From positions 64,001-128,000 of the forward strand of contig CAVSZB010000008.1 of NCBI GenBank assembly GCA_963732385.1: DNA of 64,000 bases. Direction: 5' to 3'. This DNA is from an uncultured bacterium (lineage in GTDB: Bacteria > Krumholzibacteriota > Krumholzibacteriia > LZORAL124-64-63). The notes below the pieces were generated by a model. It saw nothing but the letters and a program-made list of their open reading frames with translations, was not told where the DNA came from and did no database searches. The position numbers were made by a program, and so were the translations under genes. The stretch's first letter is position 1. Each line of letters begins with the position of its first letter. Shown here in pieces: positions 32,384 to 39,645 of this stretch.

Positions 32384-33184
32384 ATGAAACTGGGCCTGGA
32401 GGGCCGGGTAGCCCTAGTCACCGCCGCTTCGCGCGGTTTCGGTCGTTCGGTTGCCCTGGAATTGGCCGGAGAGGGGGCCCACGTGGCGCTGTGCGCCCGT
32501 GGGGCCGAGGATCTGGAGCGGACCCGGGCCGAAGTTCAGGCCGTGGCCAGGGACGGCGTCCGCCTGCTGGCTCGGCCGTGCGACATGACCGATGGTCCGG
32601 CCGTGGAGCGCTTCGTGGCCGAGGTCACGCGTGAACTCGGCCCGATCGACGCGCTGCTCGTGAACGCTGGCGGGCCGCCGGCCGGTGGATTTTTCACGAC
32701 CGGCCTCGATCAGTGGGAGGCGGCCTACCGGCTGAACCTCGAGAGCGCGGTGCGTCTCTGTAGTCTGGTGCTGCCCGGCATGATGGAGCGCGGTTGGGGC
32801 CGGATCGTGCAGATCACCTCCGTGGCGCAGAAACAGCCGGTAGACAACCTGGTGCTGTCCAACGTGATCCGGCCCGCGGTGCACGCCCTGACCCGCTGCC
32901 TGGCGGTGGAGGCGGCCCCGCGCGGCGTTACGGTCAACAGTGTCGCGCCAGGATTCCATCTCACGAGCGCCGTGGAGCGCCTGGTCAGGCATAAACTCGC
33001 TCAGGGAGCCGCCTCCTCCCGCGAGGAGGTTCTGGCCGCCTGGGAGCAGGAAATCCCGGCGGGCCGACTCGGTCGTGCGGAGGAACTGGCGGCCCTGATC
33101 GTCTTCCTGATGTCGGAGCGGGCCGGCTATGTGACCGGACAGTGTCTGGTGGCGGACGGGGGCTGGGTCCGATCGACGTTCTGA
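32384..33184 (+). CDS. SDR family oxidoreductase (3-oxoacyl-ACP reductase-like subgroup)
   Basis: TAASRGFG, NAGGPP, VNSVAPG, YVTGQ..DGG; lacks canonical YxxxK. Confidence 0.9.
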   Translation: MKLGLEGRVALVTAASRGFGRSVALELAGEGAHVALCARGAEDLERTRAEVQAVARDGVRLLARPCDMTDGPAVERFVAEVTRELGPIDALLVNAGGPPAGGFFTTGLDQWEAAYRLNLESAVRLCSLVLPGMMERGWGRIVQITSVAQKQPVDNLVLSNVIRPAVHALTRCLAVEAAPRGVTVNSVAPGFHLTSAVERLVRHKLAQGAASSREEVLAAWEQEIPAGRLGRAEELAALIVFLMSERAGYVTGQCLVADGGWVRSTF

Positions 33185-33198
33185 TCGATCCCGCGGAC

Positions 33199-33227
33199 TT
33201 GACGTCGGGACGAATCGAGTATATATT
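33199..33227 (+). promoter_or_regulatory. Sigma70-type promoter
   Basis: TTGACG - 17 nt - TATATT within an AT-rich patch in otherwise GC-rich DNA. Confidence 0.75.
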
Positions 33228-33277
33228 CATAGTCAAACAGTATTTAATATTTAAAACGATGCGACGGTGGTGCGCCC

Positions 33278-33481
33278 ATGCTCGACATCCTGAAACTGCT
33301 GGCCTTCGTGGCGGCCTACTTCGTGGTGATGCGCTGGCTGCTGCCGCGGCTGGGCGTGCCCACCTGAATGTCCGACAGTTGCTCGGTCGGGGACCGGGCG
33401 CAGCCGAAGAACCGGAAAGGTGACGACGATTCCGCGGCGGAGGCTGACCAGGCGAAGCCGCGATTGCCGGGAGCGAGGTGA
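33278..33481 (+). CDS. Candidate small membrane selenoprotein (67 aa; in-frame TGA at 33365-33367)
   Basis: MLDILKLLAFVAAYFVVMRWLLPRLGVPT-(TGA)-MSDSCSVG...PGAR-stop; SECIS-like hairpin downstream; stop overlaps the RBS of the next gene. Confidence 0.65.
33381..33399 (+). promoter_or_regulatory. Putative bacterial SECIS element 1
   Basis: GCTCGGTC-GGG-GACCGGGC hairpin; G-rich loop begins 21 nt after the TGA. Confidence 0.6.
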
Positions 33482-33488
33482 CCCGAAG

Positions 33489-33698
33489 ATGCCGTTGTTC
33501 GAGTTCAACTGCCGTCGCTGCGGCAGGAAGTTCGAGGAGATCCTGAGTCTGGCCGAACTTGCGGCCGGACCGCCAGCCTGTCCCGCGTGTGGTGCGGACA
33601 AGGCGGTACGGGAGTTATCGCGGTTCGCCACGGGCGGGGGCGGGGCCCCGGCCGGGGGGAGCGGCGGCTGCGGGCCGAGCGGATTTTCGTGAGGTTGA
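33489..33698 (+). CDS. FmdB family zinc-ribbon protein, probably ending in Sec-Gly (TGA 33690-33692 recoded; otherwise ends at 33692)
   Basis: MPLFEFNCRRCG..FE...CPACG; tail GGCGPSGFS-TGA-GGT-TGA; GAGGTG RBS. Confidence 0.85.
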
Positions 33699-33700
33699 GC

Positions 33701-33719
33701 GCACGGCCGGAGGCCGTGC
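33701..33719 (+). promoter_or_regulatory. Putative bacterial SECIS element 2
   Basis: GCACGGCC-GGA-GGCCGTGC perfect 8-bp hairpin; loop begins 16 nt after the TGA; separate from the downstream terminator. Confidence 0.6.
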
Positions 33720-33739
33720 CCACAGGGATCATTTTCGAA

Positions 33740-33772
33740 GACGACCCCGCGCAGGCGGGGTCGTCCTTTTTT
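33740..33772 (+). terminator. Rho-independent terminator
   Basis: GACGACCCCGC-GCAG-GCGGGGTCGTC followed by CTTTTTT. Confidence 0.88.
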
Positions 33773-34691
33773 ATCCCCCCGCGCGAAGCCGCGGCAGCCG
33801 CGGCTCGCGTTCGCCGTAGTGCTTGCCGAGCCAGAGGATGAGCGCACCGAGCAGCAGCCCGGCGATGACGTCCACCACATAGTGGTAGCGGCAGTAGACC
33901 GTGGCCGCGGCCAGCAGGACGAAAAGCGTGGTCAGCCAGGGACGGCTGCGTGGGGCGATCTTCCAGCCGTACCACCACGGGATGAGCGTGGCGGCCACGT
34001 GGCTCGACGGGAAAGCGGCCCCCAGGATGGCGCCGTGCGCGTGGATGTGGCGCATGACGCGGGTGAAGATCCAGCCGTCCACCGTCACCGGTCCGGCGCG
34101 GAAGTACTTCGGGCCCCAGACCGGAAAGAAGGTGTAGAGGGTGTAGCAGACGAGCATCGTCGCGCTTAGATCCCGCATGAAGGCGCGCAGAGCGGCCCAG
34201 CGCTCAGGCGGCGCGAGACGCCGCGAGGTCATGATCAAAACGAGCACGAGCGCGCTGAAGAGGTAGTAGGAGAAGTAGGCGAACTCGAACAGTTCGTGAA
34301 GCCAGGGCCACGGCCAGCGTTGCGACCAGACCAGGCTCAACTGCACGCCGAACAGCTTCTCCTCGAGTGCGATGAACCCCGGATCGAGGGAGTGCGCGAA
34401 GTCGTGGAAGACCAGCCCGAGCTGCGCCATCTCGCTGTAGAACAACGGGAACACGCACGGCAGGTAGATCTCGCCCATCAGGCGGACCGCGCCCAGGCGG
34501 CTTCCCCTGGCCAGCGGCGGCAGGAACCAGATGGCCAGCGCCAGGCCGGCGTGCAGCGCGAGGCGCAGCCAGGGGCCGGTCGGGGGCTGCCGGGAAATGA
34601 AGGGGTAGAGTCCGCTCGCGATCAGGTAGATGACCGCCCACCGGTCGAGGTCGCGCCGCTGCAGCGTCAGCCGGGCCAGTGGCAGGCGCAT
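33771..34691 (-). CDS. PAP2-superfamily membrane protein (AUR1/IPC-synthase-like phosphotransferase or phosphatase)
   Basis: AFPSSH and HYVVD catalytic motifs, FPVWGP, multiple TMs; start overlaps upstream stop (TGATG). Confidence 0.85.
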   Translation of the reverse strand: MRLPLARLTLQRRDLDRWAVIYLIASGLYPFISRQPPTGPWLRLALHAGLALAIWFLPPLARGSRLGAVRLMGEIYLPCVFPLFYSEMAQLGLVFHDFAHSLDPGFIALEEKLFGVQLSLVWSQRWPWPWLHELFEFAYFSYYLFSALVLVLIMTSRRLAPPERWAALRAFMRDLSATMLVCYTLYTFFPVWGPKYFRAGPVTVDGWIFTRVMRHIHAHGAILGAAFPSSHVAATLIPWWYGWKIAPRSRPWLTTLFVLLAAATVYCRYHYVVDVIAGLLLGALILWLGKHYGEREPRLPRLRAGG

Positions 34692-35677
34692 CAGAGCCAC
34701 CCGTTCTCGCGGTAGAAGGCCCAGGTTTCGCGGAAGCCGCGCGTGAGATCGCGTTCGGCGCCAAAGCCGGTCGTGATGCGCAGCCGGTTCCCGTCGCAGG
34801 TCCAGGCCGGCACGGTCACGCTGGCCAGGCGCTCCGGGCGCAGGAGCGGCGCCCGGGCTGCCGCAGCCCCGGCCAGCTGTGCCGCCAGCCGCAGCGCTCC
34901 CAGCGGCACCGGCACGGCCCGCACGCGCCGTCCCACCGCTTCGCGCAGGGCGCAGGCGATGTCGTCCCAGCCGTAGGCGCAGCCGTCGTCCACCTGGAAC
35001 AGGCCGCGTGCGTGCTCGGTTTCGAGGAGCGCCACCGCCGCGGCGGCACAGTCGCGTGCATCCACCAGGGAGAGCGCGGTCAGCCCGCCACGCAGGTTCA
35101 CGGTCCAGCCGCGTCGGGCCCAGGCGAACAGCGGCAGGAAGGCGGTGTCGCGAGGGCCGTACAGGGCGGGGGGGCGCAGGATGGACCAGCGGAACGGCAG
35201 GTCGGGTGTGAGGAGCTGCTCCCCCGCCAGCTTCGATCGGCCGTAAGCGCTCACCGGCGTCGGTGCGTCATCCTCCCGGCGCGGGCGGTCAGGGCGGGAC
35301 GGTCCGCCGGCGGCCAGGCTCGAAACCAGGACGAACGCGCGCAACTGGGGGGCGGCCGCGGCGGCCGTTATCAGACGGCGAGTCGGCGTCACGTTGCCGT
35401 CGAAGTAGGCCGTCTCGTTCCGCGCGCTCACCACACCGGCGCAATGGATGACGGCGCGGGCGTCAGCGAGCAGCCGCGTGGTCCCCTCCGCGCTCTCGCC
35501 CGGCAGGACTGTGCGCACCGGTTTGCCCTGCAGCCAGCGCAGATCGCTGGTGGGGCGGACGGCCGCGTGTACCTGCCACCCGCGCGCCAGCAGCGTGTCG
35601 ACGATGTGGCTGCCGAGAAAGCCGGTGGCCCCCGTCACCACCGCGAGGGGGCGGCCGGCGTTGGGTGTCGATGTCAT
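34691..35677 (-). CDS. NAD-dependent epimerase/dehydratase (candidate ceramide reductase)
   Basis: TGATGFLG, YGRSK, RPPALYGP. Confidence 0.85.
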   Translation of the reverse strand: MTSTPNAGRPLAVVTGATGFLGSHIVDTLLARGWQVHAAVRPTSDLRWLQGKPVRTVLPGESAEGTTRLLADARAVIHCAGVVSARNETAYFDGNVTPTRRLITAAAAAPQLRAFVLVSSLAAGGPSRPDRPRREDDAPTPVSAYGRSKLAGEQLLTPDLPFRWSILRPPALYGPRDTAFLPLFAWARRGWTVNLRGGLTALSLVDARDCAAAAVALLETEHARGLFQVDDGCAYGWDDIACALREAVGRRVRAVPVPLGALRLAAQLAGAAAARAPLLRPERLASVTVPAWTCDGNRLRITTGFGAERDLTRGFRETWAFYRENGWL

Positions 35678-36801
35678 GTCAGGGGCTTGTCATAGATCCG
35701 ATAGGTGCGGTACACCCTCGCGCCCATCCCTTCGAGGATGCGGTTCATCGATCGGTTGTCCTCGAGGATCCAGGAGCACTCGCCAGCCCGGATACCCTGC
35801 CGGAAGCCGGCCTCGAAGGTGCGGAAGATCATCACCGCGTCCACGCCGCGGCCGCGGTACTCCGGCAGTACGCCCAGCAGCAGGGTGCGTGCGTAGTCGA
35901 TCCGGCGCTTCTTCAGCAGGAAGGTGAGCCAGCCCAGCGGCAGCAGATGGCCGCGCAACGGCTGTGTGGCCTGGTTGAAGTCGGGAATCGTCAGGCTGAA
36001 GCCGATCGGCTTGCCGTCCGCCTCGGCGATCAGCATGAAGTCGGGGGAGACCATCTTCTTCATGTCCTTCGCGGCGTAGGCGAACTCCGCGTCGTCCATC
36101 GGGATGAAGCCCCAGTTCTTCGACCAGGCGGCGTTGTACAGCGTCCGCACCGTGGCCGCCTCCTCGGCGAAACGGCTCATGTCCATGGGGCGGACCGTGA
36201 ACGTGGCGCCGGCCAGCAGCGGCTTCATGGCATCCTGCAGGCGGTCGGGGATGCGCCCGTCGGTCGCGTCCATCCGCCAGGCCCACAGGTCGCGTGACTT
36301 CGCCAGGCCGAACGCCGCGAACTGCCCCTCGTACCAGCGCGGGTTGTATGGCATGCCGATGACCGGTCGGCCGAAGTCGCCGTCGACGAGCAGGCCGAGG
36401 TAGTCGTGGTTGGTCGTGAAGGAGCAGGGGCCGCGCATGACGGCCATGCCGTGTTCCTTCAGCCAGGCCGCCGCGGTCTGCAGCAGTTCGCGCGCGAGCG
36501 CGGGGTCGTCGGGGCATTCGTAGAAGCCGAAGAAGCCGCTCTGCTCGCCGGTGTGCCGGTTGTGGTAGCTGTCCACGCAGGCGGCCACCCGCGCGACCGG
36601 CCGGCCGGCCTCGTCGCGGGCGACCCAGAGCGCGGTCTGGGCGTGCGTGAAGAACGGGTTGTGCCCCTGATCGAAGAAGCGGCGCAGGTCGCCGAGCAGC
36701 GGGAAGACGTGGTTGGGGTCCCCGGCGTAGATGCTGTATGGCACCTTCAGGAACGCTTCGAGGTCCCGCTTGTCCTGGACGGGGCGGATCTTGGCCGGCA
36801 T
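35674..36801 (-). CDS. GNAT-fold N-acyltransferase (candidate bacterial ceramide synthase)
   Basis: HNPFF, GFFGFYE, MPYNPRWY, AWSKNWGF, GVLPEYRGRG, SWILEDN. Confidence 0.8.
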   Translation of the reverse strand: MPAKIRPVQDKRDLEAFLKVPYSIYAGDPNHVFPLLGDLRRFFDQGHNPFFTHAQTALWVARDEAGRPVARVAACVDSYHNRHTGEQSGFFGFYECPDDPALARELLQTAAAWLKEHGMAVMRGPCSFTTNHDYLGLLVDGDFGRPVIGMPYNPRWYEGQFAAFGLAKSRDLWAWRMDATDGRIPDRLQDAMKPLLAGATFTVRPMDMSRFAEEAATVRTLYNAAWSKNWGFIPMDDAEFAYAAKDMKKMVSPDFMLIAEADGKPIGFSLTIPDFNQATQPLRGHLLPLGWLTFLLKKRRIDYARTLLLGVLPEYRGRGVDAVMIFRTFEAGFRQGIRAGECSWILEDNRSMNRILEGMGARVYRTYRIYDKPLT

Positions 36802-36875
36802 GAACGCTCCTTCGGTTGGCGGCGCGGCTCCGGTCGCGGCGTGGCGGCCCGCGGACCTCCCCGCCGACCGGGGCG

Positions 36876-38060
36876 TCAGGAGATCACGCCGAGTTCCCTG
36901 CCTACCTTGACCATCCGGTCCATGGCGAGATGGACCTGATCTTCGGTGTGGGTGGCCATGAGGCTGAGGCGGATCAGCGCGTTGCCCTTCTCGACCGCAG
37001 GAGAGATGACGGAGTTGACGAAAACCCCTTCCTCGAACAGCCGGCGGCACATCTGGAAGGCGACGACATCCTCGCCGACCACGGCCGGGATGATCGGGGT
37101 CTGCGAGGGGCCGGTGTCGAAGCCGGCCTCCTGCAGGCGTTCGAGCATGATGCGCGTGTTGCGCCACAGCGCCGCGCCGCGCCACTCCTCCTCGATCATC
37201 ACGTCGACGGCGGTCGACACCGCGGCCACCGAGGCGGGCGGCATGCTGGCCGAGAAAATCAGCGAGCGCGCCATGTGCTGGATGAAATGGACCGTTTCGG
37301 CGTCCGAGGCGATGAACCCGCCCACGGAGGCGAGCGACTTGCTGAAGGTGCCCATGATGAGGTGGACCTTGTCGGTCAGGCCGAAGTGGTTGGCGGTGCC
37401 GCGTCCCTGCGTGCCGAGCACGCCGATCCCGTGCGCGTCGTCGACCATGACGACCGCGGAGTGCTTTTCCGCCATGCGCACGATGCCGGGCAGGTCGGCG
37501 ATGTCGCCGTGCATCGAGAAGACGCCGTCCACCACGATCAGCTTGCCGTTGTCGTCGCAGGCGGCCAGGGTCTTGTCGAGGGCGACCATGTCGTTGTGCA
37601 GGTACTTGCGCGTCGTGCCGAAGGAGAGGCGGCAGCCGTCGATGATCGATGCGTGGTCCACGCGGTCGACGATCACGCTGTCGCTGCGCCCCACCAGGGA
37701 GTGGATCACGCCGAGGTTCACCATCATGCCGGTCGAGAAGACGACAGCCGCCTCCTTCCCGACGAGTCGGGCGAGTTTCTCTTCCAGTTCGACGTGGATA
37801 TCGAGGGTGCCGTTCAGGAAGCGCGAACCGGCGCAGCCGCTGCCGTACTTGTCGATGGCCCGTTTTGCGGCCTCCTTGACCCGCGGGTGGTTCGTCAGGC
37901 CGAGGTAGTTGTTGCTCCCCAGCATGATGACTTCGCGCCCGCCGATCCGGACCAGATTCTCCTGGGCGGACTCGATCACCCGGAAATAGGGGTACAGGCC
38001 GGACTTCTGCAGTTCCCTGGCCTGTTGGAAATTCCGGACTTTGTCGAGCAGGCCCATCAT
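36876..38060 (-). CDS. spt: Serine palmitoyltransferase-like alpha-oxoamine synthase (PLP)
   Basis: GLYPYFR, GSNNYLGL, GCAGSRFLNGTLDIH, DDAHG, GTFSKSLAS. Confidence 0.8.
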   Translation of the reverse strand: MMGLLDKVRNFQQARELQKSGLYPYFRVIESAQENLVRIGGREVIMLGSNNYLGLTNHPRVKEAAKRAIDKYGSGCAGSRFLNGTLDIHVELEEKLARLVGKEAAVVFSTGMMVNLGVIHSLVGRSDSVIVDRVDHASIIDGCRLSFGTTRKYLHNDMVALDKTLAACDDNGKLIVVDGVFSMHGDIADLPGIVRMAEKHSAVVMVDDAHGIGVLGTQGRGTANHFGLTDKVHLIMGTFSKSLASVGGFIASDAETVHFIQHMARSLIFSASMPPASVAAVSTAVDVMIEEEWRGAALWRNTRIMLERLQEAGFDTGPSQTPIIPAVVGEDVVAFQMCRRLFEEGVFVNSVISPAVEKGNALIRLSLMATHTEDQVHLAMDRMVKVGRELGVIS

Positions 38061-38154
38061 GTACCGCGATTCGTTGGAGTTGGCGGGGCCCAATGGTGTC
38101 AGGCACCGCCCCGGAGCGCACACAGTCCGCAAAGATAATCGCCCCGGGGCGACC

Positions 38155-39645
38155 TTACCAGCCCTTTTCCGGCTCCTCCAGCACCTCGGCCTCGAAGACC
38201 GCGAACCGGGTGTCGGCACGCCAGCTGTCGGGCGGCAGGCCGGCCTTGAGCGCCAGGTGACGCAGGGTTGTTTCGCGGTCCCACCCCTGCTCGGGCGCCA
38301 CCTGGGGCAGGAAGACTGCCCGCGCCCGCCCCTTCGACAGCACGATGCCGTGCCGACCGATCACGATCTCCCCGGGGCCGGCCACGTCGCGCAGCGGGGT
38401 CAGCGCCGACACCTCCACCTGCAGGCCGGCGGTCTCCTCCGGCCCGACCGGGGGGAACCGGGGGTCGCGGGAGGCGGCTGCCGCGGCATTTTCCGCCACC
38501 GCCTCGGCGAGGGGGGCGATGCCCTCGATATAGCCGATGCAGCCGCGCAGCTCCCCGCGACGGGTCAGGGTGACGAACGCGCCGCGGGGAACGGCCAGGC
38601 GCGGCGAGAGCGCCAACCCGAGCCGGTCGGCCACGACACGCGGCGTGGGCGGCGGGATCCCGGCGGCGGTCGCTTCCACCACTGCGCGGGCGAGCGCGAG
38701 CAGGAGACGGCGCTCGTCGGCGTCGAGCGGAGCGGCGGGATCGACCGCGGCGTCGGCGCGCGGGGTCGGGGTGGCGTCGATCGACGCGGGAAGACGCAGG
38801 ATCAGGCCGGCGTAGCTCACGGAAAGCGTGTAGTCGCGGTCGCGGTCGCCGCTGCGCGCGTAGGTCACGAACTCGCCGGTCAGGGCGGTCGGCAAAGGGG
38901 CGGTGAGGGCGAGTGCGGCGGCATCGAGCCCGCACATGGTGATGCCGGTCCGTTCCCGGTAGGCGAGCAGGCCGTCGGGATCTCGCGCGAGGATGAGTTC
39001 CCACGCCCCACGGTCGAGCGCCTCGACCTGCTCCGGCACGAGCTCGTGGAACGGCGCGTAACCGTAAGATTCACCGTAGTGAGTGAAGTCGGAACTGACG
39101 AGGAAGAGGCTGCGGCCGTCGCACCAGGGCGCCAGCGCCGCGGCGGTGCGTCGGCGGGAGTCGGGGTCGAGCGGCGGCACGAGCAGCGGGACGAGCCGCA
39201 ACAGCCCGCCGAAGATGGTCTGCAAAAACGGCAGCTGGATCTCCTCGGCGTGTTCCGCCGCGTGGGCCGTCTCGACGCTGGTGAACGCCTCGTCGGCCAG
39301 CAGACGCGCCGCCACCTCCCGGTCCACCGCAACCTCGCCCAAAGGGGTGGCGTAGGCAGCGAACCCCGAAACCGACACCTTCCGCAGGCGGGTCCGGTGG
39401 CTCGGCGCGAGTAGGAAAACGCGGTCGTAACGCCAGGGCGCCAGCCGCCGGTACACCTGCCCCGCCGCCGGACCGCTGTAGGTGTAGCCGGCGTGCGGGA
39501 CGATCGCCAGCACGGGGCGCTCGGTCGCGGCGTTTGCCGCGGGCGCCCCGGGCGTTGCGAGGAAGCCGCGCACCGCGGCGTCCAGTTCCGCGGGGGCGGC
39601 CGGATACCAGGTTCCTGCGAGCACGGGGGCACGAATCTTGAGCAT
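38155..39645 (-). CDS. AmmeMemoRadiSam protein B (MEMO1) fused to protein A (AMMECR1)
   Basis: AGTWYP, PHAGYTYSG, EH..E.QLPFLQ, SSDFTHYG, TMCG; then GAFVTL..LRGCIG, DPRF, FLPQVA. Confidence 0.92.
   Translation of the reverse strand: MLKIRAPVLAGTWYPAAPAELDAAVRGFLATPGAPAANAATERPVLAIVPHAGYTYSGPAAGQVYRRLAPWRYDRVFLLAPSHRTRLRKVSVSGFAAYATPLGEVAVDREVAARLLADEAFTSVETAHAAEHAEEIQLPFLQTIFGGLLRLVPLLVPPLDPDSRRRTAAALAPWCDGRSLFLVSSDFTHYGESYGYAPFHELVPEQVEALDRGAWELILARDPDGLLAYRERTGITMCGLDAAALALTAPLPTALTGEFVTYARSGDRDRDYTLSVSYAGLILRLPASIDATPTPRADAAVDPAAPLDADERRLLLALARAVVEATAAGIPPPTPRVVADRLGLALSPRLAVPRGAFVTLTRRGELRGCIGYIEGIAPLAEAVAENAAAAASRDPRFPPVGPEETAGLQVEVSALTPLRDVAGPGEIVIGRHGIVLSKGRARAVFLPQVAPEQGWDRETTLRHLALKAGLPPDSWRADTRFAVFEAEVLEEPEKGW

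Follow-up and report, generated by a model that had tools for sequence, protein, structure and literature searches.

Two adjacent predicted selenoprotein genes, for a single-helix membrane protein and an FmdB-family zinc ribbon, in an uncultured Krumholzibacteriota bacterium

Gene arrangement and selenocysteine machinery

The locus studied here lies in a window of 64,000 nucleotides, the whole stretch of DNA that was analysed, from the genome of an uncultured bacterium of the phylum Krumholzibacteriota. It comprises a promoter-like site, a short gene with an in-frame TGA (ORF1), a gene for an FmdB-family zinc ribbon that ends in a double stop, a hairpin downstream of each TGA and an intrinsic-terminator-like element (Table 1). 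A first-pass annotation, made from the sequence alone, had placed the promoter, both genes, both TGA codons, the hairpins and the terminator, and all of its coordinates were correct on re-reading the sequence. The promoter-like site is the only one in 2 kb, where shuffled sequences would give 0.1. Hairpin 1 sits within the coding region of ORF1, where its DNA encodes CSVGDR; hairpin 2 lies wholly in the 3' UTR of FmdB and has no U tail, and the terminator is a hairpin separate from it. Folding of 33690-33775 gave z -4.35 relative to shuffles, and Rfam returned no gathering-level match within 33000-34000. Four tightly packed genes on the minus strand (33771-38219) converge on the terminator and encode a serine-palmitoyltransferase-type aminotransferase, a GNAT-like protein, an NAD-dependent epimerase/reductase and a PAP2 protein, the last with a weak match to phosphoinositol dihydroceramide synthase.

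Table 1. Features of the locus, in window coordinates
Feature	Position	Strand	Details
Sigma-70-type promoter-like site, TTGACG-17-TATATT	33199..33227	+	-35 at 33199-33204, -10 at 33222-33227
Operator-like element	33232..33250	+	Begins GTCAA (reverse complement of the -35 TTGAC), then AT-rich; conserved
ORF1	33278..33481	+	ATG 33278, stop 33479-33481; predicted 67-aa single-helix membrane selenoprotein
ORF1 in-frame TGA, predicted Sec30	33365..33367	+	TGA kept in relatives, aligned with Cys in homologues
SECIS-like hairpin 1	33381..33399	+	Stem 33381-33388/33392-33399, loop GGG, 21 nt past TGA
Overlap of ORF1 stop and FmdB Shine-Dalgarno-like GAGGTG	33475..33491	+	7-nt gap to FmdB ATG
ORF2, FmdB-family zinc ribbon	33489..33698	+	ATG 33489; predicted 69 aa; ends TGA-GGT-TGA (33690-33698)
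FmdB in-frame TGA, predicted penultimate Sec68	33690..33692	+	TGA kept in orthologues; second stop varies
SECIS-like hairpin 2	33701..33719	+	Stem 33701-33708/33712-33719, loop GGA, 16 nt past TGA
Intrinsic-terminator-like hairpin and T run	33740..33773	+	11 pairs, hairpin 33740-33765

The host genome encodes the machinery for selenocysteine insertion, the search for which had been proposed as a check: selA, selB and selD all exceeded curated cut-offs in a profile search, and the fourth component, tRNA-Sec (tRNA-SeC, anticodon TCA), is the only tRNA with a TCA anticodon in the genome. selA was found in 88/91 genomes of the family and 200/208 of the phylum. The selD gene of the host has an in-frame TGA of its own, followed at 20 nt by an 8-bp hairpin with a GGA loop, the same geometry as that of the two hairpins at the locus. 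TGA is nevertheless the commonest ordinary stop. It closes 968 of the 1392 long coding-like ORFs counted genome-wide and 22 of the 40 within the window, in agreement with the earlier statement that no genome-wide code change (tables 4 or 25) is involved.

A blind scan of the genome for TGA codons followed by hairpins retrieved ORF1 among six candidates. The other five (C7:1448240 (+), C8:313952 (-), C1:44511 (-), C1:44114 (-) and C7:169725 (+)) include one with a peroxiredoxin-like motif, one with a thioredoxin-like motif and three that are unidentified; the two on C1 lie 400 nt apart. The region C2:166900-174900 is strongly AT-rich within this 68% GC genome and is possibly an island or contamination.

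Conservation of the two UGA codons and their hairpins

The predicted ORF1 product consists of one membrane helix followed by GVPT-U30-MSDSC, in which U30 and C35 form a U-x4-C arrangement. AlphaFold modelled a helix over residues 2-24 (pLDDT >90 over residues 1-20) and nothing ordered after it. In 107 ORF1 sequences, 158 lysine and arginine residues follow the helix and 12 precede it, and U30 is therefore predicted to face the cytoplasm. The helix and a WxLPxxGxxT motif are conserved in all ORF1 forms; the Cys at the fifth position past U is retained in 80/107 TGA forms and in 10/10 Cys forms, and is missing in 25/107 TGA forms. ORF1 matched no Pfam or NCBIfam (20.0) model. NCBIfam likewise gave none over E 0.02 for 19 of its homologues, one further homologue matching via a fused thioredoxin alone, and a Pfam search with 89 family members yielded one weak, unrelated match. 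A Cys form fused to thioredoxin (P0165) was found on a single contig, and a search of the ESM Atlas with a Cys homologue returned one unnamed cluster at 0.87.

ORF1 homologues are present in 87/91 family genomes and at least 146/208 phylum genomes. The latter count is a lower bound because a divergent ORF1 in family f8 (L085 and L086), which has a shorter motif ending GT-U and precedes FmdB, escaped the phylum search. The site was TGA in all 72 phylum matches, which came from 71 loci of 41-74% GC (the 30 best family hits, 40 across families and one reached via FmdB), and the true stop of the same 72 genes varied (48 TGA, 15 TAG and 9 TAA). ORF1 had no match in a word-index search of proteins, but a HMMER search of representatives did find homologues, and the profile search retrieved 369 proteins. 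Among the 150 of these matches that were listed, 96 have Cys at the position of U, as the annotation's reading would lead one to look for, 24 stop at that position and 19 show Trp. Gene callers that applied table 4 are the probable source of the Trp entries.

We then turned to genomic DNA, with an ORF1 pattern that allowed both TGN and TAN at the site. By the strict pattern, ORF1 is estimated to occur in some 1300 GTDB stretches from Acidobacteriota, Planctomycetota, Desulfobacterota, Myxococcota, Verrucomicrobiota, Spirochaetota and others. Sampling 120 of the pattern loci gave 107 with TGA, 10 with a Cys codon, one with TAA and two chance matches (L105 and L145), which were dropped before counting. 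The TAA form, from Caldithrix (L106:2501), retains an intact downstream peptide in a genome with selA, has no passing hairpin and may be a pseudogene of recent origin or reflect an error in assembly. Fifty of the genomes were tested for Sec markers: among those with a TGA form, 33/39 have selA, and selB or a strong tRNA-Sec is present in a further four, making 37/39, compared with selA in 4/10 Cys-form genomes, 6/10 of which have neither selA nor selB. Because the Rfam model for tRNA-Sec cross-hits other tRNAs (5/14 controls passed its cut-off), only hits of at least 63 bits were counted. Two TGA-form genomes (G229 with L110 and G257 with L167), whose completeness is not given, had no detectable selA, selB or strong tRNA-Sec. 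One genome (G100) carries three ORF1 copies (L067 and L069), of which two are nearly identical and lie 2.7 kb from each other, and ORF1 occurs in the apparently cultured Tautonia sp. JC769 (L160), whose genome has selA.

The second protein belongs to the FmdB family by both models applied (TIGR02605, 54.3 bits against a cut-off of 31.3; PF09723, 46.1 against 34.4). It is laid out as a zinc ribbon (C8, C11, C31 and C34, invariant in 28/28 aligned sequences), a Gly-rich linker and the tail C61-GPSGFS-U68-G69. Its structural model is confident for residues 1-40 and of low confidence in the Gly-rich tail, and a Foldseek search with it found generic zinc ribbons only, with nothing at E 0.001 or better. 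Two paralogues occur in the host genome, one with a Cys/His-rich tail ending CGCH (L331; C7:1206880-1207074, -) and one with a long charged tail (L332).

From 77 FmdB matches in the phylum we dropped one whose frame is broken in the linker (L024) and two paralogues that lack the tail (L088 and L089). In the remaining 74 orthologues the first stop was always TGA, and a second stop followed 1-4 codons later in 73 (mostly 1-2), compared with 46/968 ordinary TGA stops of the genome. These second stops were 34 TGA, 28 TAG and 11 TAA, with one cut off. A metagenome pattern allowing any TRN codon at the site led to an estimate of about 2000 stretches; from 120 loci examined we removed 10 longer proteins and one duplicate, and the codon was TGA in all 109 that were left, at 31-78% GC, with TAA (41), TGA (36) and TAG (30) as second stops. 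Thus a TAA or TAG at the proposed Sec sites, which would have argued against recoding, was seen once among the 120 ORF1 loci and in none of the 109 FmdB loci. A Cys homologue of the tail is possibly represented by one protein (P0293) among 240 listed, and by none of the 109 metagenome loci. Some tails have a Cys added after the Sec position (U-AGC, U-APC or U-GTSSC in L036-L039, L228, L315 and L324), and in L037, where TGA-Gly-TGA precedes the Cys, the second TGA might be another Sec.

Taken singly, the two hairpins fold no better than chance in 69% GC DNA (z -0.07 and -1.43 relative to shuffles), and the case therefore rests on comparison. Each has a 3-nt loop and an 8-9 bp stem, with energies of -12.8 and -14.7 kcal/mol, and both satisfy the bSECIS constraints taken from the model as described in the sections consulted of PMC13188914. 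A fixed hairpin rule was passed by 62/72 ORF1 and 53/74 FmdB loci of the phylum, and by 80/107 TGA forms and 0/10 Cys forms of ORF1 in GTDB, compared with 59/968 ordinary TGA stops of the genome. In the ORF1 stem, 98.6% of cells are paired and 17 double changes were counted, a result reached in 0/500 shuffles and inflated by relatedness; its pairings include Val GTC with Asp GAC and Ile ATC with Asp GAT. When the best hairpin after the FmdB TGA was chosen without any rule on the loop, the loop began G[GT] in 64/65 phylum and 75/77 metagenome loci, against 73/237 controls, and a near second stop together with a passing hairpin was found at only 2/968 ordinary TGA stops. The strong hairpin lies 32-39 nt away in 14/74 phylum FmdB loci. 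A terminator-like T run follows 11/67 of the FmdB hairpins, and the hairpin may therefore double as a terminator in those relatives.

Together, these data indicate that ORF1 is almost certainly a selenoprotein gene with Sec at UGA30, and that the FmdB gene is very probably another, with Sec at UGA68. Machinery, conservation of the codons and of the sequence and hairpins beyond them, and the Cys homologues of ORF1 all agree with the recoding first proposed for both genes. The expectation that standard gene callers would truncate or miss them was also borne out: databases hold 29-aa fragments of ORF1 and FmdB proteins that are one or two residues short, a GF-x-like end at the TGA codon being found in 118/120 listed FmdB entries. 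One protein entry from the apparently cultured Deferribacter autotrophicus (P0289) ends at the same GFS.

Genomic context and likely function

A promoter site similar to that of the locus is found upstream of ORF1 in 44/70 relatives, compared with 0/30 control stretches inside the upstream gene, and GTYAA follows TTGAC by 26-30 nt in 29/35 family loci; no clear regulon emerged when the genome was scanned with a weight matrix of the operator. ORF1 and FmdB occur as a pair in 29 of the 30 top family loci, the remaining one being cut by a contig end, and an SDR gene lies upstream of the unit in 26 of these 30. The gap between the two genes is 20 nt or less in 40/64 loci that have both. These short gaps, and the overlap of the ORF1 stop with the ribosome-binding site of FmdB, lend support to ORF1 being translated through its TGA.

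The description of the unit as a self-contained operon is upheld by its conserved promoter, but not by its borders, as no terminator was found between the upstream SDR gene and the unit at this locus and an ArsR gene joins the unit in three sister families. The ArsR gene immediately precedes the pair in 13/21 loci of families f5-f7 (L036-L055) and stands between ORF1 and FmdB in 8/8 loci of f9 (L059-L066, L070). At L077 and L080 it precedes FmdB where there is no ORF1, and in family f4 (L057 and L058) an AhpD/CMD-like gene follows ORF1 in place of FmdB, with an in-frame TGA in C-x-x-U (L057). Relatives of the sister-family ArsR proteins in the PDB include NmtR, YgaV, BigR and HlyU. The f9 protein matches NmtR best and has one Cys aligned with a Cys of YgaV and a second just past the aligned stretch; that of f6 has HlyU, BigR and NolR as top matches, and its Cys residues are at positions other than those of the sulfur-sensing pair in helices 2 and 5. 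The host genome holds no clear orthologue of these regulators (best about 40 bits), and there is no ArsR gene at the locus.

ORF1 lies within 700 nt of 23/109 metagenome FmdB-tail genes, and outside the phylum the pair was seen only at L164 and L183. The pair is thus lineage-specific and not obligate. Since the genes are mostly separate outside the phylum, we infer, rather than demonstrate, the dedicated two-protein module of the first-pass annotation.

To characterize the surroundings of ORF1, we tallied by hand, for either side, the two closest genes on the same strand, with crude gene calling and related genomes included, and took arbitrary stretches of the same genomes as controls (three loci of this phylum out of 78 and three short controls out of 35 were dropped). 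Pfam families of thiol redox or sulfur detoxification were found near ORF1 in 30/75 loci outside the phylum and in 1-2/32 controls (Fisher p 0.0004 or lower), counts that overstate the significance because the relatives are not independent. Thiol-redox neighbours (13 loci) were thioredoxin, peroxiredoxin/redoxin, DsbD, MsrA, OsmC and rubrerythrin, and sulfur-handling neighbours (17 loci) were SQR-like flavoproteins, rhodanese, YgaP-like proteins, DUF302 and TauE; ECF sigma or zinc-finger anti-sigma genes lay near ORF1 in nine loci. The locus described here has no redox neighbour gene.

These neighbours, and the fusion to thioredoxin, make thiol and reactive-sulfur redox chemistry the most likely role, and of the redox- or metal-responsive function first suggested it is the redox half that is better supported. 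On the evidence of sequence and context, both genes very likely encode selenoproteins, and these probably work as small devices for the redox chemistry of thiols and reactive sulfur at the cytoplasmic face of the membrane. By analogy with established bacterial Sec biology, SelB with Sec-tRNA would bind the G-led loop and insert Sec at each UGA. ORF1, with one membrane helix and its C-terminus inside, would position U30 at the surface of the membrane, C35 being a resolving thiol that some forms do without, and FmdB would be a zinc ribbon with a flexible reactive arm ending C61-x6-U68-G. We lean, by a somewhat smaller measure, towards a cycle in which oxidative or sulfide stress would lead to oxidation or persulfidation of the selenols and thioredoxin-type systems would recycle them, with an ArsR-type regulator likely repressing the unit; this proposal claims no direct contact between ORF1 and FmdB. 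A more ambitious scheme, in which a selenium-wired relay runs from membrane to cytosol, seems to us improbable as a whole: the ORF1 selenol, oxidised or persulfidated at the membrane, would signal to the swinging Sec-Gly arm of FmdB, read-through of the first UGA would set the amount of FmdB, ORF1 would found one of the more widespread overlooked families of bacterial selenoproteins and the zinc ribbon would use a SECIS in its 3' UTR.

The main rival to a redox role is metal binding, in which both proteins would be selenoproteins whose selenols would serve to bind a soft metal or metalloid (Cu, Hg, As, Ni or Zn), or to pass it on, without redox chemistry. ArsR/SmtB regulators are often metal sensors, and the f9 protein has NmtR as its top match; NikR, ZnuA, cation-efflux and HypC/HypD genes appear in a few ORF1 neighbourhoods, the host has the FmdB paralogue ending CGCH, and metal binding is a common predicted role of small selenoproteins according to the parts consulted of a 2026 review (PMC13188914). 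Thiol and sulfur genes far outnumber the metal ones around ORF1, however, the best matches of the f6 regulator are HlyU, BigR and NolR, and the 25/107 ORF1 forms without the second Cys suffice with one chalcogen, so that we regard metal binding as unlikely.

It is less likely again that ORF1 alone is a selenoprotein gene and that FmdB ends at its first TGA, in which case the second stop would be a back-up and the hairpin would serve in termination or in stability. Such a reading would fit the lack of a solid Cys homologue for the tail, the database entries that end at the TGA codon and the T runs in some relatives. It sits poorly with a first stop that is invariably TGA down to 31% GC while the second varies freely, with the rarity of a near stop plus hairpin at ordinary TGA codons and with the strong preference for a G[GT] loop, and at this locus termination has a hairpin of its own.

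We give slightly less credence still to ORF1 as a selenium-sensing leader, with read-through ribosomes ending on the FmdB ribosome-binding site, so coupling FmdB to selenium, and the peptide being of minor importance. The overlap and short gaps between the genes are as such a leader would require, and the peptide past U is poorly conserved beyond what the hairpin dictates. In the Cys-form genomes without selA or selB, however, selenium sensing is impossible; moreover, the helix and the WxLPxxGxxT motif persist in all forms, and the genes downstream of ORF1 differ widely outside the phylum. That the UGAs are read as Trp, Cys or Gly, or are not read through at all, is very improbable: the Trp and truncated entries among the listed homologues would suit it, but TGA is the main stop, the sole tRNA with a TCA anticodon is tRNA-Sec, the hairpin accompanies TGA and is lost with Cys codons, and the Trp entries have the probable gene-calling origin given above.

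Comparison with known selenoproteins and related systems

SELENOK and SELENOS are eukaryotic single-helix membrane selenoproteins with a C-terminal Sec. ORF1 resembles them, by analogy only, in its one membrane helix, predicted cytoplasmic Sec and disordered tail. It differs in having no sequence link to them (no Pfam match) and in the place of its Sec, six residues after the helix and not C-terminal.

For the FmdB tail, the nearest parallels are proteins with a penultimate Sec. Mammalian thioredoxin reductase has the tail Gly-Cys-Sec-Gly. Like FmdB here, KCU-star and SaoC (Table 1 of PMC13188914, the part compared) are small proteins, invisible to gene callers, with a penultimate Sec in the C-terminal tail; the proteins of the locus gave no NCBIfam match to the KCU-star or SaoC models. 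In contrast to these three, FmdB has its tail Cys seven residues before Sec and not adjacent to it, and the carrier is a zinc ribbon. Selenoproteins of the FmdB family itself were described from GOS reads (PMC2398784), the part consulted giving two sequences with Sec in CxxU or UxxU, and they are listed also in the portions seen of PMC9312934 and PMC13188914. They share the domain family (TIGR02605) with the gene described here. Their Sec lies in that motif, however, whereas the ribbon described here has Cys at all four positions and its Sec is the last residue but one of a Gly-rich tail; the FmdB selenoproteins that the first-pass annotation had invoked do exist but, as far as these sources describe them, provide no precedent for the site at this locus.

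The surroundings of ORF1 homologues recall the ArsR-regulated sulfur-detoxification loci of the SqrR, BigR and YgaV types, insofar as these were surveyed, with SQR-like flavoproteins, rhodanese, YgaP-like, DUF302 and TauE genes often nearby and an ArsR gene adjoining the pair in sister families. This locus differs from them in having none of those genes, and one aligned Cys and the PDB ranks point to an ArsR subtype of this sort without establishing it.

Neither Sec site is in the catalogue of 119 families in Table 1 of PMC13188914, through which the Haft families were also compared, and neither family is among the new families in the passages on deep-Sep. A literature search by title and abstract found nothing on either family; the BSepDB family table and Deng et al. 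2026 may each bear on novelty. Both sites occur in many phyla and yet are missing from the catalogues compared, and if the assignment is correct, ORF1 would belong to a widespread uncatalogued family of membrane-anchored selenoproteins. The membrane protein, with its one helix and a clean switch between Sec and Cys forms, and the zinc ribbon that carries Sec as its last residue but one would also offer testable handles on the function of FmdB.

In its decoding, the locus conforms to SelB-decoded genes of the E. coli formate dehydrogenase type and to the bSECIS consensus in the model sections consulted of PMC13188914: it shares with them an in-frame UGA, a 3-nt loop led by G[G/U], a stem of 8-9 bp and spacings of 16 and 21 nt. 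In those genes the hairpin lies in the coding region, whereas that of FmdB lies entirely past the stop codon, which provides a handle on the question of whether SelB in bacteria can use a SECIS located past the stop. Decoding here follows the usual bacterial mechanism, and the two Sec sites are absent from the catalogues compared.
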